NCBI GenBank assembly: GCA_964386355.1
Contig: CAYLQQ010000002.1
Span: 45,374-109,373 of the forward strand
Reading direction: 5' to 3'
Source: an uncultured Pseudomonadales bacterium
Lineage (GTDB): Bacteria > Patescibacteriota > Microgenomatia > UBA1400 > UBA1449
Length of the DNA: 64,000 bases
A program made the translations under genes and the position numbers. A model generated the notes under the pieces. The model saw only the letters and a program-made list of their open reading frames with translations. It was not told the origin of the DNA and did no database searches. Shown here piece by piece: positions 5,483 to 32,010 of this stretch (within the stretch, counting starts at the first letter, position 1; each line of letters opens with the position of its first letter).

Positions 5483-7180
5483 ATGATAGAAGATATTAAA
5501 ATTGTATCAGGATCAAGTATCATTTATACTCAGAGCATGGTACTTTCTGACGATGCATTACTAGAACAGTCACTCCAGGATATTGGGATTAAATCTTACA
5601 AGGATCCCTTTGGTATGCCTGACACGTTTATATATGATCCCATAAAACCCATACAAGAAAAAGAAGGCAGCAAACGGCAAGTCCGCTTTACCCAACTGCT
5701 GAACTATTCGTTTCCAGAAGAGATAGAAGGTGGAGTAGCCGAGGTAGGGGAGGTGATATATATCGGCGATGGGGTGTGCCGGGTGGTCGGCTTATCGAAA
5801 GCTGAAATCGAAGATGTAATCAATGTTAAAACAGGTAAGGGTTGGGAAAAGGCACTCATCTTAGGTATAGAAGATACCCATATTGAGTCAGTTGTTCTTG
5901 GAGATTATTCAAATATCAAACAGGGCGACCAGGTAATCGCAACTAACTCAAGGTTAAAAGTGCCTGTTGGTAAAACTCTGTATGGCCGGGTAATTAGTCC
6001 TCTCGGAGTGCCTATAGATGGTAAGGGCAAGATTGAACCCGAAACGTACCGGGATGTGGAATTTCCAGCCCCATCAGTTATGGAGCGTGAGCCCATTTTT
6101 GAACCCCTAAAAACAGGTGAGATGGTTATAGATGCTACGATCCCTATCGGTTTAGGCCAGAGAGAATTGGTGATAGGAGACCGAAAAAGCGGGAAGAGCA
6201 GGTTTGCTATCGACATCATTTCAAACCAAAAAGGCAGAAACATGATCTGTGTATATGTTGGAGTTGGAATGCAGGCTGCTAAGGCAAAGGCTACGCTTGA
6301 GCTTTTGGAATCTAGAGAGGCCATGGATTACACCATCATGGTTGTATCTACTTCTGATGATCCTCCGTCACTACAGTACATCTCTCCATATGTAGGTACT
6401 GCCATAGCGGAGCATTTTATGTATGCAGGCAAAAATGTCTTGATTATTTATGATGATCTATCAAAACAAGCAAAAGCTTATCGGCAGGTTTCATTGCTGT
6501 TGAAACGCTCGCCAGGTCGAGATGCATATCCTGGTGATATCTTCTTTTTACATTCCAGGCTACTTGAACGCTCATCAAAAATGCATCGCAAGCTGGGAGG
6601 AGGTGCCATTACTGCCCTACCCATTGCCGAAACCCAGTCCGGTGATATATCTGATTACATCATCACCAATCTCATGTCTATTACAGATGGGCACATTTAT
6701 CTGGATGCAAATATGATGCATGAGGGAATTTTACCGGCAGTAAACTCACAAGCCTCAGTTTCCCGTATCGGGAGTAAGGTCCAGTCAAGTTTGCTAAAAA
6801 AGGTAGGAGAGCTTGCTTCGAGAGCTCTAGCCCGGTATGCAGAGTTAAAATCATTTGAAACGATTAACACCGAAGTTGCAGAGGAAACACTTCGGGATAT
6901 ACGGAGAGGCAAAAAAGTAAAGGAAATGTTAGCTCAAGTATCATCAGTAAATTATTCTACAGATGAGATAGTAGTTTTGCTCCATTTAGTAACTTCAGAT
7001 AAGCTGGAGATGATCGATCTTACAGACCTGTCTAAGTTTAAGCTGGAATTCCTGGAATACTATAGAAAAATTGTGACTCCTGAATTTAGAGGTAAATGTG
7101 AATCGTCAAAAGACCTCAAAGATATCGATGGGGAAGTGTCTGTTATGCTGGATAGGTTTTTAAAGCAACGTACAAGTTAG
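5483..7180 (+). CDS. atpA: F-type ATPase F1 alpha subunit with an N-terminal extension
   Basis: P-loop GDRKSGKS, followed by ...LIIYDDLSKQAKAYRQVSLLLKRSPGRDAYPGDIFFLHSRLLERS...ALPIAETQSGDISDYIITNLMSITDGHIYLD, all classic alpha-subunit blocks. The beta-barrel motif GEVIYIGDGVCRVVGL starts near residue 89, against about 30 in canonical alpha. An alternative start at M45 is possible. Confidence 0.93.
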   Translation: MIEDIKIVSGSSIIYTQSMVLSDDALLEQSLQDIGIKSYKDPFGMPDTFIYDPIKPIQEKEGSKRQVRFTQLLNYSFPEEIEGGVAEVGEVIYIGDGVCRVVGLSKAEIEDVINVKTGKGWEKALILGIEDTHIESVVLGDYSNIKQGDQVIATNSRLKVPVGKTLYGRVISPLGVPIDGKGKIEPETYRDVEFPAPSVMEREPIFEPLKTGEMVIDATIPIGLGQRELVIGDRKSGKSRFAIDIISNQKGRNMICVYVGVGMQAAKAKATLELLESREAMDYTIMVVSTSDDPPSLQYISPYVGTAIAEHFMYAGKNVLIIYDDLSKQAKAYRQVSLLLKRSPGRDAYPGDIFFLHSRLLERSSKMHRKLGGGAITALPIAETQSGDISDYIITNLMSITDGHIYLDANMMHEGILPAVNSQASVSRIGSKVQSSLLKKVGELASRALARYAELKSFETINTEVAEETLRDIRRGKKVKEMLAQVSSVNYSTDEIVVLLHLVTSDKLEMIDLTDLSKFKLEFLEYYRKIVTPEFRGKCESSKDLKDIDGEVSVMLDRFLKQRTS

Positions 7181-7273
7181 TTCAAAGTACAAAATACATC
7201 AATATCTTCAATTATTAGTGGAAATTATTATTTTTATCGCAAACTTATAAAGCATTATTGACAAAAATAACGT

Positions 7274-8158
7274 ATGGCCAAAATAAATGAAATAAAGGAG
7301 CAGCAAATTGTGGTATCTGCAGTAGGAGAATTTTCAAATTCTTTGCAGCAGATAGCGACCATGCGGATGGTATCGTTGCGGAAAGTGGTTTTAGCAAGCC
7401 GGCGTTTTGTGGATGAAGCTACAGTTATCTTACGCGATTTAAAACGCGAACGGCAAGCACAGCTTATTGGAAAGCTAAAGAAAATAGATAAACGCTTTGC
7501 CAAACGGAGAACTCAGCGGGAAGCGATTATTGTTTTATCTTCCTACCAAGGGTTGTGTGGTTCTTATAATGTAGAAATATTTAACCGAATTGATAAGGTA
7601 CTTCCTGTACATCTAGAAGCTGATTATTTTGTTATTGGTTCAAAAGGTCAGGATTATTTTCGCAGGTTACTGCGTAAACATCCGAAACTCAATTTTTACC
7701 CCTATGATATTCCAGAGAGTGTTGGGATAGAGCACTTGCGCCGGCTTATAAATATGTTTCCTTACTATGATCATATTCACCTTATTTATTCCAAGTATGT
7801 GAATACAACTACCAGAGATGTTGTTTTTCTTGAATTAGTTGAACCTGCCTTTGAGGAGGATGAAAAGAAAGAAGAGCCAGAAAAAGAAGATAATAAAGGC
7901 GCATATATTTTTGAACCAGACCTTGAAGAACTTATTGAAAATGTAGCTAACAAATTACGGTATGCCCTTTTTCGGCAGCAAATATTGGATTCAAAACTAT
8001 CACTGTACAGTTCTCAAATGGTTGCTATGCAAAATGCGACGGATAATGCAAAGACACTTCTCAAAGACCTACAAATGGAATATAACAAAGCCCGTCGTAA
8101 GAATATTGATAAAAAAATACAAGAAGTCCAAGCAGGCCGAGCCCTGTGGGCAAATTAG
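7274..8158 (+). CDS. atpG: F-type ATPase F1 gamma subunit
   Basis: The N-terminal helix (IKEQQIVVSAVGEFSNSLQQIATMRMVSLRK) and C-terminal helix (...MEYNKARRKNIDKKIQEVQAGRALW) fit the gamma pattern (...NKARQAxITxEIxEIxxGAxAL). The gene lies between atpA and atpD. Confidence 0.85.
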   Translation: MAKINEIKEQQIVVSAVGEFSNSLQQIATMRMVSLRKVVLASRRFVDEATVILRDLKRERQAQLIGKLKKIDKRFAKRRTQREAIIVLSSYQGLCGSYNVEIFNRIDKVLPVHLEADYFVIGSKGQDYFRRLLRKHPKLNFYPYDIPESVGIEHLRRLINMFPYYDHIHLIYSKYVNTTTRDVVFLELVEPAFEEDEKKEEPEKEDNKGAYIFEPDLEELIENVANKLRYALFRQQILDSKLSLYSSQMVAMQNATDNAKTLLKDLQMEYNKARRKNIDKKIQEVQAGRALWAN

Positions 8159-8164
8159 CTATCC

Positions 8165-11973
<3,809 letters not shown>

Positions 11974-12062
11974 GTGCCAAAATGCAGTTTACCAATGAAA
12001 ACAGCAAGGCCGCATTAATTTAATTATATTACTGCTCTGCACAATCTTTTTCATTCTTATTT

Positions 12063-12323
12063 ATGGCAGAAAACAAACCACAAGTTCACGTGATTATTGT
12101 TGATCCTGATAAGGTAGTATATGAAGGTGATGCGTTACGAATATTTGTCCCAGGAAAGATCGCAGAGCTTGCTTTGTTACCTGAACATACTCCTTTGTAT
12201 AGCGAGCTTACCGCAGGTCCAGTTATTGTAGAGGAAGTATCAGGAGCAAAGCAGGAAATTAAAATAGACGGGGGAGTGGCAAAAATGCAAAATAATGAAC
12301 TGCATATATTAATTGGATACTAA
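12063..12323 (+). CDS. atpC: F-type ATPase epsilon subunit, short form (beta-sandwich domain only)
   Basis: VHVIIVDPDKVVYEGDALRIFVPGKIAELALLPEHTPLYSELTAGPVIV... matches the epsilon N-terminal domain. The protein ends at 86 aa, without the C-terminal helical hairpin. It sits downstream of atpD. Confidence 0.8.
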   Translation: MAENKPQVHVIIVDPDKVVYEGDALRIFVPGKIAELALLPEHTPLYSELTAGPVIVEEVSGAKQEIKIDGGVAKMQNNELHILIGY

Positions 12324-12376
12324 TATTGGTTCATTTTAATTAATGACAATATTCAATTACTGACTATAATTTTGAT

Positions 12377-13018
12377 ATGAAAAAAATTACCTTACTTATA
12401 TTTGCTTCGGCAGTTCTTGTTTCTTGCACGTCATCAACAGATATAGCATCTATAGATAAAAAACTCGAGTCTTCTTCAAAATCACTTGGCAATGTCAATA
12501 TGGTAAACGATATTACTAATCAAAATCAGGTTAAAGGGGAGCAAACAGTTGCCGATGATTCGCAGGATATTGAACTTTCCAGAGATGACCAACGAGCTAT
12601 AGCCGAAAATGAAAAAAAAGGATCAGGGCAAGCAAAAACAGTAAAGCCAAGCAGCAAACCACAGACAAGCATGGACCCAATAGATAAAGATACAACTACA
12701 TTACAAGTTCAGGAAAAACAACCTGGAACAGGAGTTGAAGCAGTTGAGGGAAAAATGGTTTTGGTTCATTATGTAGGAAAACTTACAAACGGTTCAGAAT
12801 TTGACAATTCATACAAGCGCGGTCAACCGATCAGTTTTACATTAGGAGCTGGTCAAGTGATCCAAGGTTGGGATATTGGGATAGCTGGCATGAAAGTTGG
12901 CGGAAAACGACACTTGGTTATACCACCTCAACTTGCATATGGTAATAACTCACCAACTCCGGATATCCCCAATGGCGCAACACTTATATTTGACGTAGAG
13001 CTGGTTGATGTAAAATAA
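12377..13018 (+). CDS. FKBP-type peptidyl-prolyl cis-trans isomerase, lipoprotein
   Basis: Lipobox LLIFASAVLVSC, and an FKBP core VHYVGKLTNGSEFDNSYKRGQPISFTLGAGQVIQGWDIGIAGMKVGGKRHLVIPPQLAYG. Confidence 0.9.
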   Translation: MKKITLLIFASAVLVSCTSSTDIASIDKKLESSSKSLGNVNMVNDITNQNQVKGEQTVADDSQDIELSRDDQRAIAENEKKGSGQAKTVKPSSKPQTSMDPIDKDTTTLQVQEKQPGTGVEAVEGKMVLVHYVGKLTNGSEFDNSYKRGQPISFTLGAGQVIQGWDIGIAGMKVGGKRHLVIPPQLAYGNNSPTPDIPNGATLIFDVELVDVK

Positions 13019-13075
13019 TACTCTTGCATTTTTTTTCACTTTGTTTTATATAGAAATTGTTTTAGGAGGGTATGT

Positions 13076-13993
13076 ATGATTGTTCTAAAAAACGTTTCTA
13101 AAAAATTCGATCAAACCCAGGTAATATCAGATCTGAATCTTACCATCAAAGAGGGGGAAATTGTTGGCTTGCTGGGACCAAACGGGGCTGGAAAAACCAC
13201 AACAGTACGGATGATTGCTGGTGTATTACCACCGAGCAAAGGAAGTGTTCATATCAACGATAAAAATCTCTTTGATGATGAGACACAAAACGGTATTCAT
13301 ATAGGGTATTTACCGGAGAATAATCCCGTCTATGATGATATGACTGTTGAGGAGTTTTTAAACTTCTGGTCAAATATTAAGGGAATGGATAAACAAGATG
13401 CATTCCAAAGAATTACTGATGTTATAAAGCAAGTTGGTCTTGGTGATGTGTATTATCGACCGATTGCGGAGTTATCAAAAGGGTATAGGCAGCGGGTAGG
13501 TATTGCACAAGCAATTCTTGATAAACCAGACATCTTGCTGCTGGATGAGCCGACTGAAGGACTTGATCCTAACCAGCGTCGTGATATCCATGACCTTTTA
13601 ACTTCACTTGGAAAGAAACGGACAGTAATTATCTGTTCTCATGTACTCTCAGAAATCACCAGAATGTGTAACCGTATCATTATTATTAACAAAGGCACTG
13701 TAGTGGCTGATAGTCCCGTTGAGCAAGTAGGGAATTTATCTGGTGGAGTTGTGTATGAGATGATGGCAAAGGGAAAAGATGTTGAGAAAGGTTTACGAAC
13801 CATTGAGGGGGTAATTAAGGTTGATGTGATGGATGCAACTAAGCCTGCAAAAACCTATCTTATCACAAGTAATTCAAAACAAGATTTAAGGCTGTCGCTT
13901 TTTGAGATGGCTAAAGATAAAAACTGGCAGTTATATGAACTTCTAAAGAAACAGGAAGATTTGGAGCAAATCTTTGCTCAAGTTACAAAATAG
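13076..13993 (+). CDS. ABC transporter ATP-binding protein (GldA-like ABC-2 subfamily)
   Basis: Walker A GPNGAGKTT, signature LSKGYRQR, Walker B LLLDEPTEGLD. Confidence 0.9.
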   Translation: MIVLKNVSKKFDQTQVISDLNLTIKEGEIVGLLGPNGAGKTTTVRMIAGVLPPSKGSVHINDKNLFDDETQNGIHIGYLPENNPVYDDMTVEEFLNFWSNIKGMDKQDAFQRITDVIKQVGLGDVYYRPIAELSKGYRQRVGIAQAILDKPDILLLDEPTEGLDPNQRRDIHDLLTSLGKKRTVIICSHVLSEITRMCNRIIIINKGTVVADSPVEQVGNLSGGVVYEMMAKGKDVEKGLRTIEGVIKVDVMDATKPAKTYLITSNSKQDLRLSLFEMAKDKNWQLYELLKKQEDLEQIFAQVTK

Positions 13994-14025
13994 ACTAATT
14001 AGAATACATAGCAACAATAAATCAT

Positions 14026-16236
14026 ATGAATATTCGAAACATACTTACAATAACTAAAAAGGAATTTTTAGGCTTTATTAATTCTACAACGGCCTACCTG
14101 CTTATCGTCCCTTTTATCCTAATAAGTTTCTTTTTATACTTCAGGCAAGCATTTATCTCAAATCAGGCAAATTTACGAGCCTTCTTTGACTTTTTACCAT
14201 TTATACTCTTATTTCTTGCTCCGGCAATATCGATGCGAACGTTTGCTCAGGAACAACGTAATAAGACTCTGGAAGTGCTGTTCGCACATCCGGTTACGGA
14301 GCTAGATATTACCCTTGGGAAATTTTTAGGATCACTTGCTTTTTATGGCACTATGTTACTTGCTACGATCAGTTTGCCTATTACTATTTTGCTTTTTGCA
14401 AAACCTGATATGGGAGTGATTATCAGCCAGTACTTAGGTGCTTTATTTATTGGTGGAGCATTTTTATCAATTGGTATAGCCACATCGACGCTTGTCGCTT
14501 CTCAAGTATCGAGTTTTTTATTAGCGGCAGCAGTAAACTTTTTACTCATACTGGTCGGTTTTGACATTGTGCTTTTAAGTCTTCCATCTGCACTAGGAGC
14601 TTTTGTGTCACAGCTGGCAATACTTCCCCACGCATCCAACATTAGCAGGGGTGCACTGGATATGCGTGACTTACTCTATTTTGTGACTATCGTCGGAATT
14701 GCCCTTACAATTGCAACCATAAAACTATCTGCACGTAAGATTGCAGAAAGTCAGATTGCCCGCCAAAAACTGTACATGGCCTTAGGTTTGGTGGTTGCCT
14801 TTGGAGTGATTACTAACATTTTTATGTACAGCTATCCAATCCGTATTGATTTGACAACCAACAAACTCTTTACCTTATCAAAAGGGACCAGAACAACCAT
14901 TGGAAATTTGCCAGATTTAGTCACTATTACACTCTACTCATCAAATAATTTGCCTGGTACGGTTGAATCAACTGTCCGGCAAACCAAAGATGTGCTTCGC
15001 GATTATCACAGGTTAGCAAAAGGAAAAATAAAGCTTGTCGAGAAACATCCCGATATAAATCCTGAGGATAAAACAGCAGCTGTTAATGATGGTATACAGG
15101 AGGTGCAGTTTAATACACTAAGTAATAATGCCTTTGCAGTCCAAGCCGGGTATGTAGGTCTTTCTCTTCAGTATCTTGATAAGAAAGAGACCATTCCGTT
15201 TATTCAAAACGCATCAGAGCTGGAATATCAGTTAACACGTTTGGTTCGCAAAATGACTACAGACAGCTTGCCAATCTTAGCTCTATATACACAACCAACA
15301 ATTACCTACACAGGACAACAGGCAGCAATAAATACGCTTAGGTCGGTACTCAGGGATCAGTATGATATTCGAGATTTGGATCTATCCCAACCCGAAGCTT
15401 CTATATCAGGAAAAGCTGTTATGGTGTATGGCTTAAACTCCGCTATGGGAGCAACAGCATCAGCCAAGCTTAAAACGTTTATAGCAGAAGGTGGTAATGC
15501 TTTATTACTGCTCGACAATCACACAGTAAATCCTCAGCTTGGGACTGCCCCTTCTTATACGGTAGGTATTGAGGATATGTTGGCCAATGATTTCGGAATT
15601 ACTGTCAATCAGGATCTAGTATATGATCTACGCTTAAACGAAATTATTACTCTGCAATCGGGTAATCAGCAATACTTACTTCCATATCCGTTCTGGCTGA
15701 AATCTTTGCCTGGTGAATCTAAAAAAATACCATTAGGAACTATTGGGAGCGTGACTTTGGCATGGCCAAGCTCTTTTACTCTAACTCAAAAAGAAAATGT
15801 GGTGCAGGAGCAACTGCTTATTACCAGCAAAAATGCCGGTTCACAACAGGGAACATTTCAAATTGCTCCTGAAAAACTACAAGCTAGCGATTTTAAAGTA
15901 GACGGTCAAGAGAAACCACTAGGAGTATTTGCGTCAAATACGAAGAGCACACTAATCGTAATTGGAGATAGTGATTTTATTACTGATCAGTTTGTGCAAA
16001 ATGCTCCAGTCAATTTGCAATTTGCTAACTTGCTTATCGATACAGTTGCAGCAGATGAGATTATGGCAACCGTTACTCAAAAATCAGGAGATAATCCTAT
16101 ATTTATATTTGATAGCGCCTCGCAAGCACAACTGGTTCAATATGTAAATTTATTGGGAGTACCTATCGTAATTGGGGTATTTGGTGGCTGGTGGCTACTC
16201 AGGCGTAAAAAGATGTACCAGCGAACTTATAATTAA
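14026..16236 (+). CDS. Fused ABC-2 permease (GldF-like) and GldG-like periplasmic/auxiliary domain protein
   Basis: The N-terminal ~240 aa form a six-helix ABC-2-type permease. A large soluble region and a C-terminal TM (VIGVFGGWWLLRRKK) follow, as in GldG-family proteins. It lies directly after the ATPase gene. Confidence 0.65.
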   Translation: MNIRNILTITKKEFLGFINSTTAYLLIVPFILISFFLYFRQAFISNQANLRAFFDFLPFILLFLAPAISMRTFAQEQRNKTLEVLFAHPVTELDITLGKFLGSLAFYGTMLLATISLPITILLFAKPDMGVIISQYLGALFIGGAFLSIGIATSTLVASQVSSFLLAAAVNFLLILVGFDIVLLSLPSALGAFVSQLAILPHASNISRGALDMRDLLYFVTIVGIALTIATIKLSARKIAESQIARQKLYMALGLVVAFGVITNIFMYSYPIRIDLTTNKLFTLSKGTRTTIGNLPDLVTITLYSSNNLPGTVESTVRQTKDVLRDYHRLAKGKIKLVEKHPDINPEDKTAAVNDGIQEVQFNTLSNNAFAVQAGYVGLSLQYLDKKETIPFIQNASELEYQLTRLVRKMTTDSLPILALYTQPTITYTGQQAAINTLRSVLRDQYDIRDLDLSQPEASISGKAVMVYGLNSAMGATASAKLKTFIAEGGNALLLLDNHTVNPQLGTAPSYTVGIEDMLANDFGITVNQDLVYDLRLNEIITLQSGNQQYLLPYPFWLKSLPGESKKIPLGTIGSVTLAWPSSFTLTQKENVVQEQLLITSKNAGSQQGTFQIAPEKLQASDFKVDGQEKPLGVFASNTKSTLIVIGDSDFITDQFVQNAPVNLQFANLLIDTVAADEIMATVTQKSGDNPIFIFDSASQAQLVQYVNLLGVPIVIGVFGGWWLLRRKKMYQRTYN

Positions 16237-16253
16237 TCCTAGATGTGTAACAT

Positions 16254-17150
16254 ATGACAAATAAGGTTTTATCCCAGCTTACATTTCTGGTTGCATTTGT
16301 TCTGCTGATATTATTTGGCAGAAATCTTATAACCAGATACCAGCAACAACAGCCAAATGAGTATCAAAATGCGATAAAAAGCATTAAATCAGATGACATT
16401 GTTCGTATTGAGTTGACCAAAGCAAGTCAAGAGCTGGTTTTAACACGACAGGACGGTATATGGAGGATTGCATCAAAATCAGCAGATATCGCAAAAGTAA
16501 ACGAACTTATTGGAGCTTTACTACCTAAACAATCACCACAGCTAATATCGGAGAATACAGATAAATTTTCAGATCTTGAAGCTACTCAAGAAACAGGAGT
16601 TACTGTAAAGCTGATAACCCAGCAGGATGAAAAAGTATTTATAGTAGGTAAGGCAATAGATACAGTGCGGGCAGTCAAATACGAACCTTTAGAAAAAGTA
16701 TATGGCATTTCTTCGGTGCCAGAACTATCAATCCAGGCAAGCGATTGGCTTAATACAACCGTTGTCGATATTGATAGTTCAAACATAAAAAAGATTTCAG
16801 TGAGTGGTAAAGAGATATACTCACTCATCCAAACCGGAGATAGGCAATGGTCTTTTGAGGGTTCTGATGAAAAGGTTAATAGCGATGGAGTTACTACATA
16901 TGCATATAAATTTAACCCTTTAAAGGCCGATGGTATTGCCAGTGAAGATCAAAAGCAGTCATTTGATCTTAGTAGTGCGGGGTTTCGGGTTTCAATAACA
17001 GATACCAGTGATGTGAATACTGATCTTCAATTTAAACTTATAGACGATCAGTACATTATCAAGCGCTCAACTGACAATGAATATTTTATACTAGATAAAC
17101 CAACGGGTGAAAGTTTTGAAAAACAAAAATCCGGATTTGTATCCTCATAA
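16254..17150 (+). CDS. DUF4340-like accessory protein of the GldG-type ABC system
   Basis: N-terminal TM plus a repeated beta-rich domain. Its position downstream of the GldG-like gene is the usual DUF4340 context. Confidence 0.45.
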   Translation: MTNKVLSQLTFLVAFVLLILFGRNLITRYQQQQPNEYQNAIKSIKSDDIVRIELTKASQELVLTRQDGIWRIASKSADIAKVNELIGALLPKQSPQLISENTDKFSDLEATQETGVTVKLITQQDEKVFIVGKAIDTVRAVKYEPLEKVYGISSVPELSIQASDWLNTTVVDIDSSNIKKISVSGKEIYSLIQTGDRQWSFEGSDEKVNSDGVTTYAYKFNPLKADGIASEDQKQSFDLSSAGFRVSITDTSDVNTDLQFKLIDDQYIIKRSTDNEYFILDKPTGESFEKQKSGFVSS

Positions 17151-19926: not shown

Positions 19927-19929
19927 AAA

Positions 19930-22064: not shown

Positions 22065-22092
22065 TTGACGAGAGCGAAGTTTACTATAGAAT
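22065..22092 (+). promoter_or_regulatory. Sigma70-like promoter, divergent from the aspS leader
   Basis: TTGACG-16 nt-TAGAAT. Confidence 0.5.
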
Positions 22093-22098
22093 AATTAG

Positions 22099-22248
22099 GC
22101 TATGAATTGCAGATCCAATTACCAACACCTTACCAAATGCCAAGTCCGCTTTATGTGGATTATTTTGGGTGGTATTAAGGAGGTTCTTGGGTAAGTTTGT
22201 ATAAAAAGATAGAAAACCAAAACCTCCTTAAACCAAGGAGGTTTTTTT
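22099..22248 (+). ncRNA. Candidate ~150-nt leader or small RNA with a possible 30-codon leader ORF and alternative terminator/antiterminator pairing
   Basis: The promoter is followed by the hairpin AACCUCCUUAAACCAAGGAGGUU+U7 at 22221..22248. An upstream copy UUAAGGAGGUU (22175..22185) can pair with the 5' arm of that hairpin instead. The small ORF 22102..22194 ends exactly over the upstream copy. Confidence 0.3.
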
Positions 22249-22255
22249 ATGCCCT

Positions 22256-22444
22256 ATGATGAAACCGCAACTTCTTTCTCAATCAACCGATTCAAACCTG
22301 TATGTAAGCAGAGGCACTGAACTGCCTTGGCAGTATGTATATCGGCAACTACGCCTACATAAGCTTTCAGATGTAACCAGCTATCAAGTTAACGGTAATT
22401 TGTACATCGTTGTTTCGGTGGGAAAGGAGAAAAATAATGCATAA
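22256..22444 (+). CDS. Hypothetical small protein (orphan)
   Basis: 62-aa ORF with no recognisable motif. The better-placed SD (AAGGAGG, 7 nt) actually serves an ATG at 22249 in another frame (23 codons), so the coding assignment is uncertain. Confidence 0.25.
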   Translation: MMKPQLLSQSTDSNLYVSRGTELPWQYVYRQLRLHKLSDVTSYQVNGNLYIVVSVGKEKNNA

Positions 22445-22494
22445 TTTTAAAATATCAATGTTCAAAATAGTTAATAATTTTATTGGAGGTAAAT

Positions 22495-22689
22495 ATGCCT
22501 AGAGAAATGGATAGTCCTATAGTGGGGGCATCTTACATGCCGGATCCTGAAAATGCTAGGAGAGAGTTAGTGCATGCTGTAGCAGAAGCACAGAAATTAC
22601 TGGAACTACATGGAATAGATTCCTCTGCATTAAGCATGAGCCCACTGGAAACATTATCAGTAGCAGCGCAAATACAAACGTATTCATAA
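22495..22689 (+). CDS. Hypothetical small protein (orphan)
   Basis: A GGAGG SD lies 6 nt upstream of the ATG at 22495, and a terminator follows. No family recognised. Confidence 0.45.
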   Translation: MPREMDSPIVGASYMPDPENARRELVHAVAEAQKLLELHGIDSSALSMSPLETLSVAAQIQTYS

Positions 22690-22756
22690 GATTTATAGGT
22701 CATACATAGAAAGTATGTATACATAAAGACCGCAATCTCTTATACAATAGCAAAAG

Positions 22757-22777
22757 AAACGCGAAAGCGTTTTTTTT
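22757..22777 (+). terminator. Intrinsic terminator
   Basis: AAACGC-GAAA-GCGTTT followed by a T-run. Confidence 0.65.
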
Positions 22778-22804
22778 GCGGTTAATCATAAATTTAAAGT
22801 TATT

Positions 22805-23095
22805 ATGTCACAGCTTTGTGAGAGAGAACGAGTCCGTATGGTCGAAGATTTGGGATTACCCTCAAGTTGTGACTTTTATAGAATATTAACTGTCAAAGAG
22901 GGTGAGGAACTAGTTAAAAAGTTTAATGTATTAGCCCAAAAATTTTCTACTGATGGAGCCGAGTGTTTTGATTTAAAGGAAGCGTATTTGCATATGTTAC
23001 GTACTACGCAGTTTAATAAGGATAATTTGCCGCAACATGTTTCTATACCATCACTTTTTGTATTTAATAAACTGTATGATCAATATGGAAAATGA
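22805..23095 (+). CDS. Hypothetical small protein (orphan)
   Basis: 96-aa ORF with no recognisable motif. Confidence 0.4.
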   Translation: MSQLCERERVRMVEDLGLPSSCDFYRILTVKEGEELVKKFNVLAQKFSTDGAECFDLKEAYLHMLRTTQFNKDNLPQHVSIPSLFVFNKLYDQYGK

Positions 23096-23097
23096 GA

Positions 23098-24843
23098 TTA
23101 TTGTAGGTCTTTTACTATTAATTGTATCTTTTGTTTACTATTCCACTCATTCAAATCTATCTGGTATGCAAGATCGATTTTGTCACCCAGTTTATGTGTT
23201 TTGATGGAGTCGGGAGCGTTGAAGTAAAGGGTATCGTAAGTAGTTGTTGGTTGTAGGTTGTTGGTTGTAGGTGAAACCATAAGTTTATAATGCTGGCCGG
23301 ATTTGCCCATAGGATACAGCCCTTTTAATTCGATTCCCTTGGTTACAAATACAGGTTTTTGGTTTCCCATCCCAAAAGGTGCGAACTTTTCAATTTCTGC
23401 ATACAGGTCCATAGTAATATCTTCAGTCTTAAGTTCTGTTTCTGCTTCTAATGAAGGGACAAGCAATTTTTCATCAATATGTTCCTGAGCGTATGTTTGT
23501 AGCTTTTGAGTCAGATTCTTTATGTTATCTGTAGCGACACTAAAGCCCGCAGCCATGGGATGTCCACCAAGCTCCAGGAACTCCGTTTCAAATACGCGTA
23601 AAATTTCTATGATATTGACACCGGGAACCGAGCGGACTGAGCCTTTGGCAAAGCCGTCCATGATGGCTATAGCAATGCTTGGTCGGGCGAACGTTTCTGT
23701 GATTTTGCCGGCAATCAGTCCGATCACGCCGGCATTATACTGCTTGGATGAGATAATGATGATTTTGGGAATTGGTGTCTTGTGCTGAATGCTTTCAATA
23801 ATTGGCTGTAGATTATCATTGGTCAGTTCCTGACGCTGCTTGTTGGTTTGGCCAAGATGAAAAGCCAGCTCAATTGCCCGCTCCTGTTTACGTGTACAAA
23901 GTAAGCGTAAAGAATCAATTGAGTGTTCAAGCCTCCCGCTGGCGTTGATACGGGGAGCAATGACAAAACCGATATGGTATGTGGTCAGGGGTTTTTGGGG
24001 ATCAATACCAGCATCAGCCATAAGAGCTTTAAGACCGGGTCTGGTAGTTTTTGGGAGCAGTTGCAGGCCGCGCTTGACTATCTGGCGGCTGGGACCAAGT
24101 AGGGGAACAAGGTCGGCGATGATACCAATTGCTGCCAGCTCTACCAATGAATTTAATATCTCTTCTTTCTTGGATTGCTCGGTTTTAAAAAATGATAATA
24201 TTTCCTTTGCGAATATGTAAGCAACGCCTGCACCTGCAGTTTGAGTAGTATGGACAATGGCAAGACATTTAGGGAATTTGGTCTGTGATGTATTTTCAGG
24301 GAACCTGTTTGAACCCGGGATTGGCTCATGGTGGTCGCAGATAATGAGGTCTATTCCCTGCTGCTTACAAAACCCTGCCCCTTCAAAGGCCACAATGCCG
24401 TTATCAACTGTGATGATTAGTTTGGGCTTACCATGCTCAGAAATTGCATCTTCAAGTGATCTTGGTTTTATGCCATAGCCATGTTTTTCACGGTGAGGCA
24501 AAAACGGCAGAACCTCAAAACCTAAAAAATGTAAGGTTTCCCACATGATAGCAGTAGAGGTAACCCCATCTGTATCGTAATCTCCGTAAATCAGGATCTT
24601 TTCATCATTGATCTTAGCCTTTTTTAGCCGTTCCAAAGCCAGTTTGAGCTGCTGAAGGTCAATACCCAAGTCTTTTGGTGTTATATCATGAGGGTTAGTA
24701 TCATTAAAAAATTGATCGCGTTTCTTTTGTGTTTCAAGACTTCTATTTTTTAATAATATATCAATGATAGCCTGTTGCCGGTTGAAAGCATTTTGGGGTA
24801 TCTGGTGTTTAGTGATCCATTTTTTTTGCATATTCTTATACAT
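23098..24843 (-). CDS. recJ: Single-stranded-DNA-specific exonuclease RecJ
   Basis: DHH-family motifs IYGDYDTDGVTS and ICDHHEP, a DHHA1-like GGHPMAAG motif, and ~580 aa length. Confidence 0.9.
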   Translation of the reverse strand: MYKNMQKKWITKHQIPQNAFNRQQAIIDILLKNRSLETQKKRDQFFNDTNPHDITPKDLGIDLQQLKLALERLKKAKINDEKILIYGDYDTDGVTSTAIMWETLHFLGFEVLPFLPHREKHGYGIKPRSLEDAISEHGKPKLIITVDNGIVAFEGAGFCKQQGIDLIICDHHEPIPGSNRFPENTSQTKFPKCLAIVHTTQTAGAGVAYIFAKEILSFFKTEQSKKEEILNSLVELAAIGIIADLVPLLGPSRQIVKRGLQLLPKTTRPGLKALMADAGIDPQKPLTTYHIGFVIAPRINASGRLEHSIDSLRLLCTRKQERAIELAFHLGQTNKQRQELTNDNLQPIIESIQHKTPIPKIIIISSKQYNAGVIGLIAGKITETFARPSIAIAIMDGFAKGSVRSVPGVNIIEILRVFETEFLELGGHPMAAGFSVATDNIKNLTQKLQTYAQEHIDEKLLVPSLEAETELKTEDITMDLYAEIEKFAPFGMGNQKPVFVTKGIELKGLYPMGKSGQHYKLMVSPTTNNLQPTTTYDTLYFNAPDSIKTHKLGDKIDLAYQIDLNEWNSKQKIQLIVKDLQ

Positions 24844-25192
24844 GAGAATATTCTAAAAATAGTCGTTCCCGCTCCTGTTCTAGGAATTTAAGATTAGCTT
24901 CAATGTTTCGCAATGCAGTCTGAAGGTGTGGTTTTTTACTAAAGTCCAATACGTTGTTAATATCTGCCCACTGTTTTATCAGTTGTCTATTTCGATTATC
25001 CAGCGCTTGTTTGATGAGCTCAAATTGGCCATGCGTGGTCAGTTTGTGCCACTCTGGGAAATTTGCTAAATATAATGGATCATACTCACCAAATTCAATA
25101 GCTTTTGTTAGGGTGATTAGATCAGTTGTTGGCTGAGGGGATCCTGATTTTAAGGTTTCTCCAAATTCACCCGATTCATTGTAGTTAGCCAT
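24836..25192 (-). CDS. Hypothetical protein, translationally coupled to recJ
   Basis: 118-aa ORF whose stop overlaps the recJ start (ATGTATAA overlap). No family recognised. Confidence 0.5.
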   Translation of the reverse strand: MANYNESGEFGETLKSGSPQPTTDLITLTKAIEFGEYDPLYLANFPEWHKLTTHGQFELIKQALDNRNRQLIKQWADINNVLDFSKKPHLQTALRNIEANLKFLEQERERLFLEYSHV

Positions 25193-25195
25193 AGA

Positions 25196-26638
25196 TTGGA
25201 ATTAGATTTATTAATCAAGCTTGATTATAATACAAGCATGAATGTTAGCCTACCTAGATTAGTTTCACTAGTTTTACAAACTTTAGAAAAACAGAATTAT
25301 GCTGCCTACGTTGTGGGTGGATCGGTGCGGGATGTTTTATCAAACAACGGTCATGGAGTCAAAGACTGGGATTTTACTACAAATGCGACACCCGAGCAGA
25401 TCACAGAGCTTTTCCCGGAGTCTTTTTATGATAACCAGTTCGGTACGGTTGGGGTGACAGTAGAAGAACTCTTAAAGCAATTTGGTTTAGAGAATTATGA
25501 TCTGGAAAAAGATCATCTTAAGAACGAAGATGTATTTGAAATAACTACGTTTAGGAGCGAGGGATCATATAGTGATTTCAGGCGTCCGGATTTTGTAACA
25601 TGGGGAAAAACGATCGAAGAAGACCTTAAACGGCGTGATTTTACCATGAATGCCATGGCGCTTCGGTTAATTAAAGACGATGACTTTGAGCTGATCGATC
25701 TGTTTGGCGGAAAGCAGGACTTAGATAATAGATTAATCAAAGCAGTAGGAGACCCAAATGAACGCTTTGGTGAAGATGCTCTGCGGATGATGCGGGCAGT
25801 GCGTATGGCTGCTCAGCTTGGATTTATGATCGAGCCAAAAACGCTTGAGGCGATCAATCGCAATTCTCATTTGATTGCCAAAATTGCCTGGGAGCGTATC
25901 CGTGATGAGCTGCTCAAGCTTGTCTCTACGGACTTTGCTGTCGATGGCATGAAGCTGCTGCTTTCTACCGGCCTCTTGCATTTTATTTTACCCGAGATGG
26001 AGCGGACAGTCGGAGTGGTGCAAGCAGGGCACCACACAAAAGATGTCTGGCATCACAGTATTGATGCAATGGGAGCATGTCCTACAAAAGATCCGATCGT
26101 GAGGTTGGCTACTCTTATCCATGACTCTGGCAAGCCGATTGCTTTTAGACAAGAGGGCGGCAAGATCACGTTCTACGGACATGAGGTAATTAGTGGCAAG
26201 ATTGCCAAGCGGATCGGGCAAAGGCTTCACTTATCTAATCTTGATCAGGAGCGACTGTATATTCTGACCCGCTACCACATGTTTGCCTATGACTCAAATA
26301 TGACAGATGCCGCAATACGTAGGTTTATCCGTAAAGTTGGTTTGGAAAATATCAAAGATATGATGCGGTTAAGAATTGGAGACAGGGTCGGTGGAGGGTC
26401 GCCTGAAACATCGTGGAGGTTGCGAGAACTTAATGATCGTATTGAGGCAGTTCTTTACACTCCCATGCAGATCAAAGACCTTAAAGTCAGCGGCAATGAC
26501 ATTATGGAGATCTTAGGGATTAAACCTGGACCTAAGATTGGTGAGATATTACAGAAACTGTTTGACGAGGTGATGGAGGATAGCAGTAAAAATGAAAGAG
26601 AATATTTGATAGGCAGAATTAAGGAGCTAAGTAGTTAA
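25196..26638 (+). CDS. cca: CCA-adding tRNA nucleotidyltransferase / poly(A) polymerase family protein with HD domain
   Basis: GGSVRDVL...DWDFTT head-domain motifs, RDFTMNA, and an HD region (IHDSGKP). The likely true start is the ATG at 25238 (MNVSLPRL). Confidence 0.85.
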   Translation: MELDLLIKLDYNTSMNVSLPRLVSLVLQTLEKQNYAAYVVGGSVRDVLSNNGHGVKDWDFTTNATPEQITELFPESFYDNQFGTVGVTVEELLKQFGLENYDLEKDHLKNEDVFEITTFRSEGSYSDFRRPDFVTWGKTIEEDLKRRDFTMNAMALRLIKDDDFELIDLFGGKQDLDNRLIKAVGDPNERFGEDALRMMRAVRMAAQLGFMIEPKTLEAINRNSHLIAKIAWERIRDELLKLVSTDFAVDGMKLLLSTGLLHFILPEMERTVGVVQAGHHTKDVWHHSIDAMGACPTKDPIVRLATLIHDSGKPIAFRQEGGKITFYGHEVISGKIAKRIGQRLHLSNLDQERLYILTRYHMFAYDSNMTDAAIRRFIRKVGLENIKDMMRLRIGDRVGGGSPETSWRLRELNDRIEAVLYTPMQIKDLKVSGNDIMEILGIKPGPKIGEILQKLFDEVMEDSSKNEREYLIGRIKELSS

Positions 26639-26643
26639 TCGCC

Positions 26644-27096
26644 CTACATTTCTGTATGGTATCGTGCACTCATACTAACGAGGTGTTTTCTCGTTATATT
26701 AAGCAACTTGTTAGGATTTGTTGTTGCCTTGAGTAAGTAATCGGCTGCTCCCATATTTATCCCTTTTTGGATTGAGTTCATATCTCCCAGTTTGGTAAGA
26801 AATACAACTGGTATATCATGAGTTACGGGATGTTGTTTTAGATTCTGGCAAAGCCGGAATCCGTCCTGATTCGGAATAAGTAGATCAAGATAAATTAAAT
26901 CAGGTTTTAAAATAACTGCCTTTTCTAATACATCTTCAAACCTGAAGAAAATATTCACTAAAAAGCCACTGGCTTCCAGGAAGGATTTATACTGGTTAGC
27001 TTTATCTAAGTCATCATCAACAATAAACACTCTTCTGGGAATAAGTGTTTCTCTAACATCAAGCATACTCTCATTATACTCTAAAATTTTATCCAT
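26644..27096 (-). CDS. Stand-alone response-regulator receiver domain protein (CheY-like)
   Basis: RVFIVDDDLD..., the phospho-acceptor context DLIYLDLLIPNQDG, and a conserved T/K region (VVFLTKLGD). No output domain and no kinase gene nearby. Confidence 0.8.
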   Translation of the reverse strand: MDKILEYNESMLDVRETLIPRRVFIVDDDLDKANQYKSFLEASGFLVNIFFRFEDVLEKAVILKPDLIYLDLLIPNQDGFRLCQNLKQHPVTHDIPVVFLTKLGDMNSIQKGINMGAADYLLKATTNPNKLLNITRKHLVSMSARYHTEM

Positions 27097-27125
27097 ATCA
27101 TTTATATGTAGGTTATAATATAGGT

Positions 27126-28184
27126 ATGAATTTTCACAACCTTACGCAGGTGCTTAGCAAATACAATGAACCCAGCTATCGCTATACTCAAATAAGCTCA
27201 GATGTTGTGTCGGGGAGAGTCTTGTCTTTTAACGATATTTTTACTATCCCTATTTCACTAAGAACTACTCTATCGCAAGAATTGCTGGTATCTTCACTGA
27301 CTTCCCAGTCATTATTTGTTTCACAAGACAGAAAGGCTTATAAAGCACTTTTAAAATTACAAGATGGTCAGCTCATAGAAACCGTATTACTCAATCCAGC
27401 TCCAAGCCTCTGGTCTGTCTGTCTTTCGTGCCAAGTTGGGTGTCCTATGGGATGCACATTTTGTGCAACTGGTAAACAGGGTTTTACCCGCAATTTAACG
27501 AGTGAAGAAATTTGTGACCAGATACTCTTCTGGCGACAATATGTGGTGTCACAAAAACTTAAAATCCGTATTAGTAATATAGTTTATATGGGTATGGGTG
27601 AACCTTTTGCAAACCTTGATCCGGTACTGGAAAGCATTCAGTGGTTTATTGATCCAAAGCTATATGGGTTTGGGCAAAGACACATTTCCGTTTCAACCTG
27701 TGGTATTCCGGCAGGCATTGATAAGCTTGCACAAGTATTCCCTCAAGTTAATCTGGCACTTTCGTTACACGCCCCCAATGATGATTTACGAAAGGAGATT
27801 ATGCCAGTTGCTCGACAATTCTCGCTTGAAGAGGTTATGAATTCACTTAAAGAGTATGTTCAAAACACAAACAGGCAGGTATTTATAGAGTATGTAATGT
27901 TGGCACACAAAAACGACACAGACAAACATGCGCTTGAACTGGGTAATCTGTTAACTTCATTTTTTAAAGATAAATTTCATTTGATTCATGTAAATTTAAT
28001 TCCCTACAACTCAACAGGCAACACATTTATTGGATCCTCGATTGAAAGGATGGGGAAGTTTGAATCTATTCTGACTCACTTCCATATTAGTACGACCATC
28101 AGGAAAAGTTTGGGACAGGATATATCAGGTGCTTGTGGGCAGCTAAAGGGAAAGCTATCGGAAAACGATTTACAGCAGCTTTAG
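27126..28184 (+). CDS. rlmN: 23S rRNA/tRNA A-C2 methyltransferase RlmN (radical SAM)
   Basis: CQVGCPMGCTFCATG radical-SAM cluster motif, MGMGEPFAN, and a C-terminal GACGQL motif. Confidence 0.9.
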   Translation: MNFHNLTQVLSKYNEPSYRYTQISSDVVSGRVLSFNDIFTIPISLRTTLSQELLVSSLTSQSLFVSQDRKAYKALLKLQDGQLIETVLLNPAPSLWSVCLSCQVGCPMGCTFCATGKQGFTRNLTSEEICDQILFWRQYVVSQKLKIRISNIVYMGMGEPFANLDPVLESIQWFIDPKLYGFGQRHISVSTCGIPAGIDKLAQVFPQVNLALSLHAPNDDLRKEIMPVARQFSLEEVMNSLKEYVQNTNRQVFIEYVMLAHKNDTDKHALELGNLLTSFFKDKFHLIHVNLIPYNSTGNTFIGSSIERMGKFESILTHFHISTTIRKSLGQDISGACGQLKGKLSENDLQQL

Positions 28185-28760
28185 TTTTACTCTTGAATCA
28201 TACATTTTTTGAGCTATTTCATATATTCGGTCTTCGATGCTTTTTTCACCAAAGTATATAAATGCAGGATGTTGTAAGACATCCGAAGGTAAAAATGAAA
28301 TACAGAATTCAAGTTGAGTTATGGATTGTGTATATACATATAAGCACGCCAATAACTGATCGTTTCGTATCTTCATCGCTAAAAAATAATCCTTCATTTT
28401 GTCACCTGAACTGATTTCTGCGGCTTTTAACTGAATAAACAGTTCAAATGCCTGAGGAGAATCGACATTTTCTTTGATACGGTGAGTTATATGACCTGGA
28501 AGGGAATGAATTTGGTTGATCGCTGAGATAGCAATGTCTTGCTTAGATATATAGGCCAAGTCACGTACCTGATTCCAAAATTGTTGCTTATCTCCCAATT
28601 GAATCAATAGTTCGAATTTGTGATGAATTATTGTGAAATGTTCCAGAATAAAGTTGCGAAGCGTTTCTTTATCTAGTTGATTTCCTTTAAAAAAATTTTT
28701 CAAAAGCGTAGAAACATCGCTATCATTATTCAAGTCTGGTAATAGTATTTGATCGGACAT
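28170..28760 (-). CDS. Hypothetical protein
   Basis: 196-aa ORF, helical by composition, with no TM segment. Its 3' end overlaps the rlmN 3' end by 15 nt (convergent). Confidence 0.45.
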   Translation of the reverse strand: MSDQILLPDLNNDSDVSTLLKNFFKGNQLDKETLRNFILEHFTIIHHKFELLIQLGDKQQFWNQVRDLAYISKQDIAISAINQIHSLPGHITHRIKENVDSPQAFELFIQLKAAEISSGDKMKDYFLAMKIRNDQLLACLYVYTQSITQLEFCISFLPSDVLQHPAFIYFGEKSIEDRIYEIAQKMYDSRVKLKLL

Positions 28761-28778
28761 ACTCTGGGATATACTTAG

Positions 28779-30809
<2,031 letters not shown>

Positions 30810-30885
30810 GAGGGTGATAGATTATAGGGTTTGAATACTGATCGATAAAACTAGTATACTTAAACTAATACATTTTACTGCCCAT

Positions 30886-31404
30886 ATGTTTGATACTTTA
30901 TTTATATACACCCTAACAGTAATTATTTACATTGGCATTCTTTTCTTTTTCTTTTGGAGGCGTAATAGAAAACAAGAAGAACAGCTTAATGCTTTTTTGA
31001 AAGAAGCTAAAGAAAAACTTGAATTGCATAGAAAAGAGGCAAAAGTTCAAGCCTCAGGTAAAGTTGCCAAAGCATTTGAGCTGATCAAACGTTTACAAGG
31101 TGTTGCTGAGGATTTGGAGGGTCAAGTACAGACAGAGTATGAAAAAGTACTGGAAGAAGCCCAGCAGCAGAAAAAAGATATCATCGCTGAAGCACGCAGA
31201 CAATCTAAAGAAATACTTGAAGGAGCTGATGGAGAGCTCGCTCAGTATAAAGAAGAACGTAAGCGGGAAATTGAGAAAAACCTAGTGAAATTAGTAATGA
31301 GTGTCACTGAAAAGGTAGTCGGTAGGGGATTAACGCGTGAAGACCAAGTTGATCTGATCAGGGAAGCTGTTGAGGAAGTCAGGAAAGAAAAGGGACATTT
31401 ATAA
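30886..31404 (+). CDS. atpF: F-type ATPase subunit b (peripheral stalk)
   Basis: A single N-terminal TM (LTVIIYIGILFFFFW) followed by a ~140-aa charged coiled coil (…EEAQQQKKDIIAEARRQSKEILEGA…). It sits directly upstream of atpH. Confidence 0.8.
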   Translation: MFDTLFIYTLTVIIYIGILFFFFWRRNRKQEEQLNAFLKEAKEKLELHRKEAKVQASGKVAKAFELIKRLQGVAEDLEGQVQTEYEKVLEEAQQQKKDIIAEARRQSKEILEGADGELAQYKEERKREIEKNLVKLVMSVTEKVVGRGLTREDQVDLIREAVEEVRKEKGHL

Positions 31405-31431
31405 ATTGCTTACGTTTACTCTAAAGCATAT

Positions 31432-32010
31432 ATGGAAAAAGGTGTTGATAAATTAGCAAAACAACTGCTCTCTCAAATCTATACCACATCAGAACTTAAA
31501 AAAACTTCTCTGGCGTTAGAAGAACTATCACACTCTTCAACTTTTAAGGCAGAAACGCGCGCTATAGTAGCTAATCCTAAATTAGCTGATGAAGCTAAAG
31601 CAACACAATTACTAAAACTGTTTGATGAAATAGATATTCCTATAATCCAATCGTTTTTTTCAGGGGTTTTTAGTGAAGGAGAGTTCTGGATGTTTTCCTC
31701 CAAACAATTCGATTACTTCGACGAATTTGTAAGAGCTTTTCAGCTGGCTACTGAGAATGTACTAGTGGTATCGATGGTTACTGCTATTGAGCTTTATCCG
31801 CGTGAGCAGATGGTTTTTGCGCAAGAACTAGGGAAAAGCCTCGAAAGACAAGTTGTTTTGGACTTTAAACTTAATTCTGGAATTATCGGCGGAGCTCAGA
31901 TTCGAATCGGAAACCTAGTATTTGACTATACGTTGCGCTCTAAGTTTAATCAGTTTGAAAGGCAATGGATAAGTCGCATGGCAAAAACAGCTGCTTTTGT
32001 GGGGGAGTAA
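31432..32010 (+). CDS. atpH: F-type ATPase subunit delta (OSCP)
   Basis: Size is 192 aa. The C-terminal block VVLDFKLNSGIIGGAQIRIGNLVFDYTLRSKFNQF matches the delta/OSCP signature (..D.sliGG..v.vGd.v.D.S...rL). Confidence 0.8.
   Translation: MEKGVDKLAKQLLSQIYTTSELKKTSLALEELSHSSTFKAETRAIVANPKLADEAKATQLLKLFDEIDIPIIQSFFSGVFSEGEFWMFSSKQFDYFDEFVRAFQLATENVLVVSMVTAIELYPREQMVFAQELGKSLERQVVLDFKLNSGIIGGAQIRIGNLVFDYTLRSKFNQFERQWISRMAKTAAFVGE

Follow-up and report, generated by a model that had tools for sequence, protein, structure and literature searches.

The stretch of DNA analysed here (the window: 64,000 nucleotides, positions 45,374 to 109,373 of contig CAYLQQ010000002.1 in assembly GCA_964386355.1) carries the genes of an F-type ATPase in two clusters on the plus strand, i.e. 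atpA-atpG-[796-aa protein]-atpD-atpC at 5483-12323 and [c-type fusion]-atpF-atpH at 28848-32010. Its c-type subunit is fused to a large immunoglobulin (Ig)-like ectodomain and lacks the ion-binding carboxylate, and a gene for subunit a (atpB) is missing from the operon. Such a-less, carboxylate-less fused systems are widespread in part of the candidate phyla radiation (CPR). F-type ATPases are defined by the ion path between subunits a and c that is coupled to F1, and it seems (with a probability of roughly 0.55) that the two clusters encode a single F-type rotary ATPase without ion coupling, the rotor ring of which has been turned into a cell-surface structure.

The fusion (28848-30809, 653 aa; Big_1 plus a C-terminal ATP-synt_C) is a real and conserved gene. 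It starts with a signal peptide (residues 1-29, 28848-28934) with predicted cleavage after AYA and before ADP, and an alignment of 25 sequences (A1) shows conservation of the hydrophobic N-terminus and of the Ala/Gln-rich site behind it. An AlphaFold2 (AF2) model built on this alignment begins with the signal-peptide helix (residues 2-23), after which come five beta-sandwiches, a Gly-rich linker of low confidence and a hairpin of two helices. The five tandem Ig-like domains, which make up the ectodomain (28935-30485), lie at approximately residues 30-132, 139-240, 246-327, 354-439 and 445-537, with a predicted local distance difference test (pLDDT) score of 75-94 inside the domains. The Pfam family Big_1 (PF02369) matches the fusion in two stretches (41.3 bits versus a gathering score of 34.9), and Foldseek matched the ectodomain only to generic series of Ig domains such as occur in S-layer proteins and adhesion molecules. 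The Gly-rich linker that follows (residues 547-582, 30486-30593) has a pLDDT below 50 and varies in length and sequence across A1.

The C-terminal part of the fusion (residues 583-653 plus the stop codon, 30594-30809) is a c-type helical hairpin. Its ATP-synt_C match of 24.1 bits is right at the Pfam cut-off of 24, while c subunits in the PDB match it at E=1e-6 (HMMER), with their ion-binding Glu opposite L638. Across 86 family members this position is occupied by Ile (44), Val (23), Leu (17) or Met (1); none of the 86 has an Asp or Glu after the loop and all of them have the GRNP loop. Invariant residues of the hairpin include G591, G595, G597, G600, G604 and G605 (the Gly motif of helix 1), R618, N619 and P620 of the loop, and N629 and Y631, both polar, in helix 2; the Glu beside the R-N-P loop is invariant in A1. 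The family comprises 86 clusters of 399-690 aa (full-length members being ~630-690 aa) with identities down to 46%, found at 20 GTDB species loci and at further metagenome loci, and one of its members carries the NCBI label "ATP synthase F0 subunit C". A normal c subunit has both termini outside the cell and its loop in the cytoplasm, where the loop of canonical c subunits contacts gamma and epsilon. Because the fusion is N-terminal to the hairpin and follows a signal peptide, in agreement with this topology, the ectodomain is placed outside the cell.

The absence of atpB was assessed with PROSITE pattern PS00449 and a hidden Markov model (HMM) of atpB, in the window (in six frames) and in ~50 fused-type loci of related genomes and metagenomes (numbered here with an L). 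PS00449 had no match among the 1334 open reading frames (ORFs) of the window and 27 of the loci. The HMM, made from 18 CPR atpB proteins, found nothing better than E=0.13 in the 64-kb window translated in six frames, and likewise nothing better than E=0.13 in any fused-type locus, where scores stayed below 10 bits throughout, whereas in the positive control all 48 atpB ORFs of canonical loci exceeded 110 bits. A c-subunit HMM run on the same translation of the window matched the fusion alone (E=2.6e-13). The remaining ORFs of the window with multiple transmembrane (TM) helices are SecD/SecF, ABC-2 or AI-2E transporters, and the 10 kb past the right end of the window hold neither an ATP-synt_A gene nor any other ATPase gene. 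The operon is without atpB throughout the clade. The initial annotation had already reported that nothing in the window resembles subunit a, that the gene upstream of the c-like gene (28170-28760, minus strand) is divergent and soluble and that the membrane sector is non-canonical, and all three statements are borne out, the last by the hairpin without carboxylate as well as by the clade-wide lack of atpB.

A scan of metagenomes with the loop motif yielded operons of both kinds. In a set of 87 loci, atpB lies upstream of none of the 41 acid-less fused c genes, as opposed to 45 of the 46 short c genes with a Glu (a script gave 42 of the 46, and three with overlapping ORFs were added by eye). 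In these canonical CPR operons the Glu-bearing c subunit is 71-104 aa long and, with one exception, its preceding ORF is positive for PS00449; one such ORF was confirmed as PF00119. In these loci, a gained ectodomain goes hand in hand with a lost carboxylate and a lost atpB. Three candidates for a disguised subunit a were rejected, namely the 796-aa protein of the F1 cluster, which has no atpB-HMM or PROSITE match, has a PMT_2 homologue and is absent from the operons of most relatives; the 196-aa protein encoded upstream of the fusion, which is soluble and helical; and a 231-aa protein encoded next to the 196-aa gene in relatives, which has a single TM helix.

The catalytic part of the enzyme looks ordinary. 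Alpha (atpA, 5483-7180, 565 aa) matches Pfam ATP-synt_ab with 240.9 bits in addition to the N- and C-terminal domains, and exceeds the NCBIfam atpA equivalog TIGR00962 (528.9 bits, cut-off 484); beta (atpD, 10558-11973, 471 aa) matches ATP-synt_ab with 232.7 bits and exceeds the atpD equivalog TIGR01039 (619 bits, cut-off 463). The GDRKSGKS P-loop and the SRIG Arg finger can be read by eye in the alpha translation, and beta aligns end to end with the Bacillus F1 beta structure 2qe7_D (521 bits), keeping the P-loop, GERTRE, Walker B and YVPADD motifs. The earlier proposal of intact F1 motifs and a probably retained ATP turnover is supported by these alignments. Between related genomes, beta and gamma are 92% and 90% identical as proteins at ~77% DNA identity, from which it follows that F1 is probably under purifying selection; on sequence grounds, then, F1 is canonical in type and constrained. 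Neighbour-joining trees of alpha and beta (rough, unbootstrapped, of CPR sequences only, and used as a hint) group the Beckwith-type alpha (i.e. that of the window and its closest relatives) with that of the 'VILG' type described below; the sampled alpha of canonical CPR operons forms the sister group of this clade, and the L093 and L049 types branch off deeper. Ahead of its beta-barrel domain, alpha carries an N-terminal extension of ~80 aa (residues 1-84, 5483-5735); in relatives alpha measures 535-557 aa, and in L015 the ORF is 664 aa when called from the first start codon.

Both stalks are represented as well. Gamma (atpG, 7274-8158, 294 aa; PF00231, 151.7 bits), epsilon (atpC, 12063-12323, 86 aa; ATP-synt_DE_N, PF02823, 55.9 bits over residues 9-83) and delta/OSCP (atpH, 31432-32010, 192 aa; PF00213, 57.8 bits versus a cut-off of 22.3) all score above their Pfam cut-offs, which covers the central stalk and the delta of the peripheral stalk. 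Gamma is regarded as divergent, since it does not reach the NCBIfam equivalog cut-off. Epsilon consists of the beta-sandwich only: it lacks the C-terminal helical domain, the helices of which are the element that inhibits hydrolysis in bacteria, and in the fused type as a whole it is 85-97 aa long, compared to 134-144 aa in most canonical CPR operons. The gene between c and delta (atpF, 30886-31404, 172 aa) encodes a b-like peripheral-stalk subunit with one N-terminal TM helix and a coiled coil. Its NCBIfam subunit-B matches are weak (28 bits, below the cut-off), it keeps the same position in all loci compared, and its product falls into one 90%-identity cluster with the Candidatus Beckwithbacteria protein PIP53430.1, in line with an origin of the window from Beckwithbacteria-like Microgenomates within the CPR; the proteins of the window also turn up in the Logan assembly SRR11845627.

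Between atpG and atpD lies a gene (8165-10555, plus strand) for a 796-aa protein with ~15 TM helices. Neither this protein nor P0138 has a Pfam match; P0139, which is 42% identical to it, scores above the cut-off of PMT_2 (PF13231; 30 versus 26.1 bits). By homology it would therefore be a (PMT_2-like) member of the GT-C glycosyltransferases and not a part of Fo. A word-indexed search returned only three homologues, and the same slot is occupied in L108 (1952-4363) and L109 (2879-5308), while most of the clade has no such gene in its operon. Across genomes the protein is only 42-44% identical, versus 90-92% for the flanking gamma and beta, and DNA identity, ~77% otherwise, falls to 45-60% over the gene, the drop coinciding roughly with its two ends, so that it looks like a fast-evolving, diversifying or exchanged cassette. 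Elsewhere in the clade TMEM260-like GT-C genes adjoin the operon instead of lying inside it; BLASTP found no similarity between the 796-aa protein and those neighbours in L002 and L003. The human enzyme TMEM260 adds O-linked mannose to Ig-like IPT domains (PMC10214176).

The initial annotation had drawn attention to the split into two clusters. The gene identities and coordinates of both clusters were confirmed by Pfam and NCBIfam and the split is real, but it is not the core of the matter, since synteny points to a secondary, lineage-specific rearrangement in one sub-clade of Beckwithbacteria-like CPR. In most relatives the operon is contiguous (fusion-b-delta-alpha-gamma-beta-epsilon), with the fusion in the position of atpE. 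This is so, for instance, in L003, L009, L011, L014, L017 and L023, at ~46-51% identity of the fusion, and the order is the same in L010, L016, L022 and L025, where the contig ends before epsilon. Insertions within the operon occur in L002, L015 and L021, and gamma-beta-epsilon has been relocated upstream in L013 and L019. Only in a sub-clade with at least 57% identity (the window, L005, L006/L008 and L007; also L024 and L026) does the cluster stop after delta, and the second cluster of this split sub-clade reads alpha-gamma-[~800-aa membrane protein]-beta-epsilon-FKBP-ABC (in L108, and in L109 up to the end of a 6-kb contig). The genes that separate the two clusters in the window, which had been described as unrelated to the ATPase, are indeed housekeeping genes according to their Pfam labels (Peptidase_S11, a methyltransferase, AspRS, RecJ, CCA-adding enzyme, a response regulator and radical SAM), plus an ABC system. 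A convergent tRNA-Glu(CTC) gene downstream of atpH (32012-32085, minus strand; ARAGORN and Rfam) marks a possible rearrangement breakpoint. The same tRNA gene lies downstream of atpH at L005:14762-14835, L026:13757-13829 and L027:2663-2738. The split itself is of low interest, the a-less and acid-less fused system being the main finding.

Acid-less c proteins are not confined to the Beckwith type. A sister type, named 'VILG', has fusions of 636-793 aa and the same a-less architecture (L034-L036, L040-L042, L044, L045 and L102). Far more divergent is the L093 type, in which a 272-aa c-like protein, made up of a secreted domain and the hairpin, is encoded ahead of genes that resemble those for b, delta, alpha, gamma, beta and epsilon. 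This a-less and acid-less operon (L093:9470-15771) shares the 1.19-Mb JGI contig Ga0210044_10000002 with a canonical a-c-b-alpha-gamma-beta operon (L094:9074-14926). Divergently ahead of the L093 operon, a surface protein of 2290 aa is encoded, and the secreted domain of the c-like protein is of a different kind there. In all three of these divergent fused types the slot directly before atpF is kept. A HMMER search with the hairpin furthermore returned proteins of up to 2672 aa that end in an acid-less hairpin, including giant secreted Ig-repeat proteins of 2001-2672 aa (P0227, P0258, P0263; L028-L031, e.g. L028:2627-10396) that terminate in '...GRNPYAK...IKFF'. No alpha or beta genes were found within 10 kb of the giant gene in L028-L031. 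In L028 and L029 another giant gene comes next, then genes for an ABC ATPase and a MacB/FtsX permease and, right at the limit of the flank, a b-like ORF (TM helix plus coiled coil), and because giant-type loci end with this b-like ORF, ATPase genes may lie beyond the flank. The giant hairpin proteins might conceivably be larger versions of the Ig-c rotor.

How might such an enzyme operate? On the favoured reading, i.e. a rotary ATPase without ion coupling, the hairpins would form a c-ring that binds gamma and epsilon, with the N-terminal part of each fusion on the outer face of the membrane, so that some 8-15 Ig-domain arms per ring would project from the cell. With neither a carboxylate nor a subunit a, there would be no ion path and the enzyme could run in ATPase mode only, which fits the loss of the inhibitory C-terminal domain of epsilon. 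ATP hydrolysis would then turn or twist the ring and its crown of ectodomains relative to the alpha3beta3 head, held by b and delta, and the output would be mechanical work or a conformational change at the surface (for adhesion, host contact, motility or surface remodelling) instead of ion pumping. The Ig-like ectodomain is probably glycosylated by the neighbouring GT-C enzymes (PMT_2-like inside the operon here, TMEM260-like beside it in relatives), by analogy with the human enzyme. The surface mechanical output and the glycosylation are the more speculative parts. The gliding of Mycoplasma mobile provides a precedent for an F1-type ATPase that drives surface machinery (PMC8406192, PMC11864180).

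Several points weigh against this reading. The a-less L093 and the canonical L094 lie on one contig, so a canonical enzyme could coexist in Beckwith-type genomes too, and the search for atpB covers ~74 kb of the 136-kb contig of the window and 10-kb flanks in relatives. Without subunit a there is no obvious membrane stator for b and delta, and the assignment of b itself is based on architecture, position and sub-threshold matches only. The linker, being Gly-rich and predicted to be disordered, would transmit torque poorly if the arms did not bundle. That a ring forms and rotates, that it is glycosylated and that it has a function at the surface are all inferences.

The alternative to be taken most seriously, albeit an unlikely one, is that a canonical Fo elsewhere in the genome (atpB together with an atpE that has the Glu, or else a whole second operon) makes ATP or pumps protons, in which case the Ig-c operon would be a second, specialised paralogous system, or the fusion a minor or alternative component of the ring. 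The co-occurrence of L093 and L094 speaks for it, as does the presence of canonical atpB in other CPR lineages, Pacebacteria included. The Beckwith-type loci, however, show no F1, b or delta genes other than those of the fusion operon, in which the fusion sits in the atpE slot, and the F1 of the window scores above the canonical atpA and atpD equivalogs, unlike the strongly divergent F1 of L093. Among the best 120 of 7984 CPR atpB clusters, none could be placed on a fusion-bearing contig, which is weak evidence. Even with a canonical Fo elsewhere, the fusion operon would still be a-less and acid-less. Considerably less probable is that the hairpin serves as a mere membrane anchor or oligomerisation module of an S-layer- or adhesin-like protein, with which F1 does not engage and next to which it lies for historical reasons. 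The flexible linker, the likeness of the ectodomain to S-layer and adhesion proteins and the giant proteins (2348-2672 aa) with an acid-less hairpin of this kind at their C-terminus and no alpha or beta gene within 10 kb would all suit an anchor, although the giant-type loci end in a b-like ORF and ATPase genes may follow. An anchor would leave the conservation of the loop to be accounted for (R-N-P throughout the family, the adjoining Glu in A1), i.e. of the part that contacts gamma and epsilon in canonical c subunits, and the slot before atpF is strictly kept in the Beckwith, 'VILG' and L093 types; the retention of b and delta would also be hard to explain if F1 had no c-ring partner.

Two further explanations are very improbable. 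Ions might still be translocated by an unconventional route, via Asn629 and Tyr631 or with the help of a membrane protein that replaces subunit a (e.g. the 796-aa protein), for which the invariance and polarity of the two helix-2 residues and the presence of a large membrane protein gene within the F1 cluster could be adduced. Yet N629 and Y631 sit close to where helix 2 meets the cytoplasm, nine residues ahead of the position that corresponds to the Glu, and the 796-aa protein is probably a GT-C protein by homology, is only 42-44% identical across genomes versus ~90% for F1, and is absent from most operons of the clade; besides, we know of no F-, V- or A-type rotor that works without a membrane-embedded carboxylate. 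The least probable of all is a decaying, functionless relic: parts essential to the canonical enzyme are missing, and the ProAD survey labels c subunits without Glu/Asp 'non-catalytic' (PMC11738941), but dozens of diverged genomes keep every gene intact, the catalytic motifs are preserved, beta retains 92% protein identity at ~77% DNA identity and many residues of the hairpin are invariant.

If an uncoupled rotary ATPase is indeed encoded, a large and conserved family that keeps F1, both stalks and a c-type ring, has neither the carboxylate nor subunit a and has acquired an ectodomain at the surface amounts to a natural experiment in the re-purposing of a rotary motor. An F-type ATPase in a CPR genome is routinely taken as a sign of ATP synthesis or membrane energisation, and an "incomplete" operon as a gap in a metagenome-assembled genome (MAG) (PMC11738941); in the present clade neither interpretation is likely to be right. 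The system is also a testable candidate for the use of ATP at the surface of tiny, probably host-dependent bacteria. The full extension of this idea can be put forward only tentatively and is itself rather doubtful: an undescribed class of CPR rotary machine, i.e. an F-type ATPase without an ion path, in which a rotor made of Ig domains outside the cell (here ~520 aa per protomer), probably glycosylated, would have the c-ring as its hub, such that cytoplasmic ATP hydrolysis would drive rotation or twisting at the surface for host attachment, motility or remodelling. Such a machine would be the ATP-powered counterpart of ion-driven surface rotary motors.

Directly upstream of the fusion and divergent from it, a conserved gene (28170-28760, minus strand) encodes the soluble 196-aa protein mentioned above, which is predicted to be all-helical. 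A homologue occupies this position in 24 of the 26 Beckwith-type loci with upstream sequence (L001-L027) and is present in L032, L037, L048 and L085 as well; beside the 'VILG' type none was detected. An alignment of the family (A4, 176-200 aa) has K112, A113, E115, Y125, R132, D134 and Q135 as invariant residues, within the motif KA-E...DY..A..IR.DQL. The protein has no match to Pfam, NCBIfam or PDB profiles, and a single-sequence AF2 model of it reached a pLDDT of 44.6. A scan of 28000-32600 for promoters and terminators returned no more sites than in shuffled sequence. After atpC, at 12377-17150, follow co-directional genes for a membrane-anchored FKBP-type peptidyl-prolyl isomerase, an ABC ATPase, a fused ABC-2 permease with ABC_transp_aux (PF09822) and DUF7088, and a DUF4340 protein; L108:6102-8915 repeats the FKBP gene, the ABC ATPase and one more gene up to the contig end. 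In L005, a relative with 82% identity, b and delta are separated by an inserted bAvd/23S_rRNA_IVP-like gene of 125 aa (12622-12999), and upstream there is a gene for an rve-family integrase (L005:7173-8198). In L007 (GCA_054028795.1), genes for CheB, CheW, a response regulator and a methyl-accepting chemotaxis protein (L007:1-4205) are found 6-10 kb upstream of the fusion. Several MAGs that represent GTDB species at L012-L022, L025 and L027 are titled 'uncultured Gammaproteobacteria' or 'Pseudomonadales bacterium', which is probably a labelling error.

Among known systems, the canonical F1Fo (atpBEFHAGDC) is the obvious reference. The fused system shares with it the alpha and beta equivalogs, gamma, epsilon, delta and a b-like subunit, the order c-b-delta-alpha-gamma-beta-epsilon in most relatives, and the Gly zipper and R-N-P loop of the hairpin. 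It differs in having no atpB in the operon, a c subunit without Glu/Asp that is fused to a signal peptide and an Ig-like ectodomain of ~520 aa, and an epsilon without its C-terminal domain, and in the genome of the window also in the split of the operon and the putative glycosyltransferase gene between atpG and atpD. Of the parts of an ion-translocating F1Fo, the catalytic alpha3beta3 and both stalks are thus present, while the c carboxylate and an adjacent subunit a are not. The N-ATPases (atpDCQRBEFAG) offer a parallel in that they are a second, divergent F-type operon beside canonical ones in some bacteria, but they retain subunit a and an ion-binding c, and alpha, beta and gamma of the window stay well below the alt_F1F0 models (score/cut-off: TIGR03324 479/750, TIGR03305 527/752 and TIGR03323 39/282, respectively).

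Full-text literature searches returned no description of an a-less operon or of an ectodomain-fused c subunit, and an a-less, carboxylate-less F-type ATPase with such a fusion appears to be undescribed. The ProAD survey of GTDB lists 20 F/N-type and 41 A-type ATPases with a c/K subunit lacking Glu/Asp and marks them 'non-catalytic'; it needs a and c for a set to count as "complete" and puts incomplete Patescibacteria sets down to MAG incompleteness (PMC11738941), whereas a-less operons and ectodomain fusions are not described there. According to a preprint on the CPR 'Pam' system, the operon that encodes surface filaments with an Ig fold is consistently adjoined, in Saccharimonadia and Microgenomatia, by ATP synthase genes and a tail-fibre-like gene (bioRxiv 10.64898/2026.03.03.709456). 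That system differs from the present one in that separate pilins are joined by donor-strand exchange; a c fusion or the loss of subunit a or of the carboxylate is not reported, and the ATPase genes were not analysed in it.

Closest in the presumed use of ATP are the F1-like ATPases of Mycoplasma (the gliding G1-ATPase MMOB1660/1670 of M. mobile, and MSC_0618/0619), hydrolysis by which is thought to power a surface function instead of moving ions (PMC8406192, PMC11864180). Alpha/beta hexamers of the F1 type are common to both, but the alpha and beta of the window do not reach the Mycoplasma-specific models (score/cut-off: NF045863 343/600, NF045858 429/850, NF045936 274/520, NF045934 421/570), and membership of this group, like that of the N-ATPases, was rejected on such family-specific cut-offs. 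To our knowledge, the Mycoplasma systems have no c-ring, b or delta, whereas the system of the window retains a c-type subunit, b and delta.

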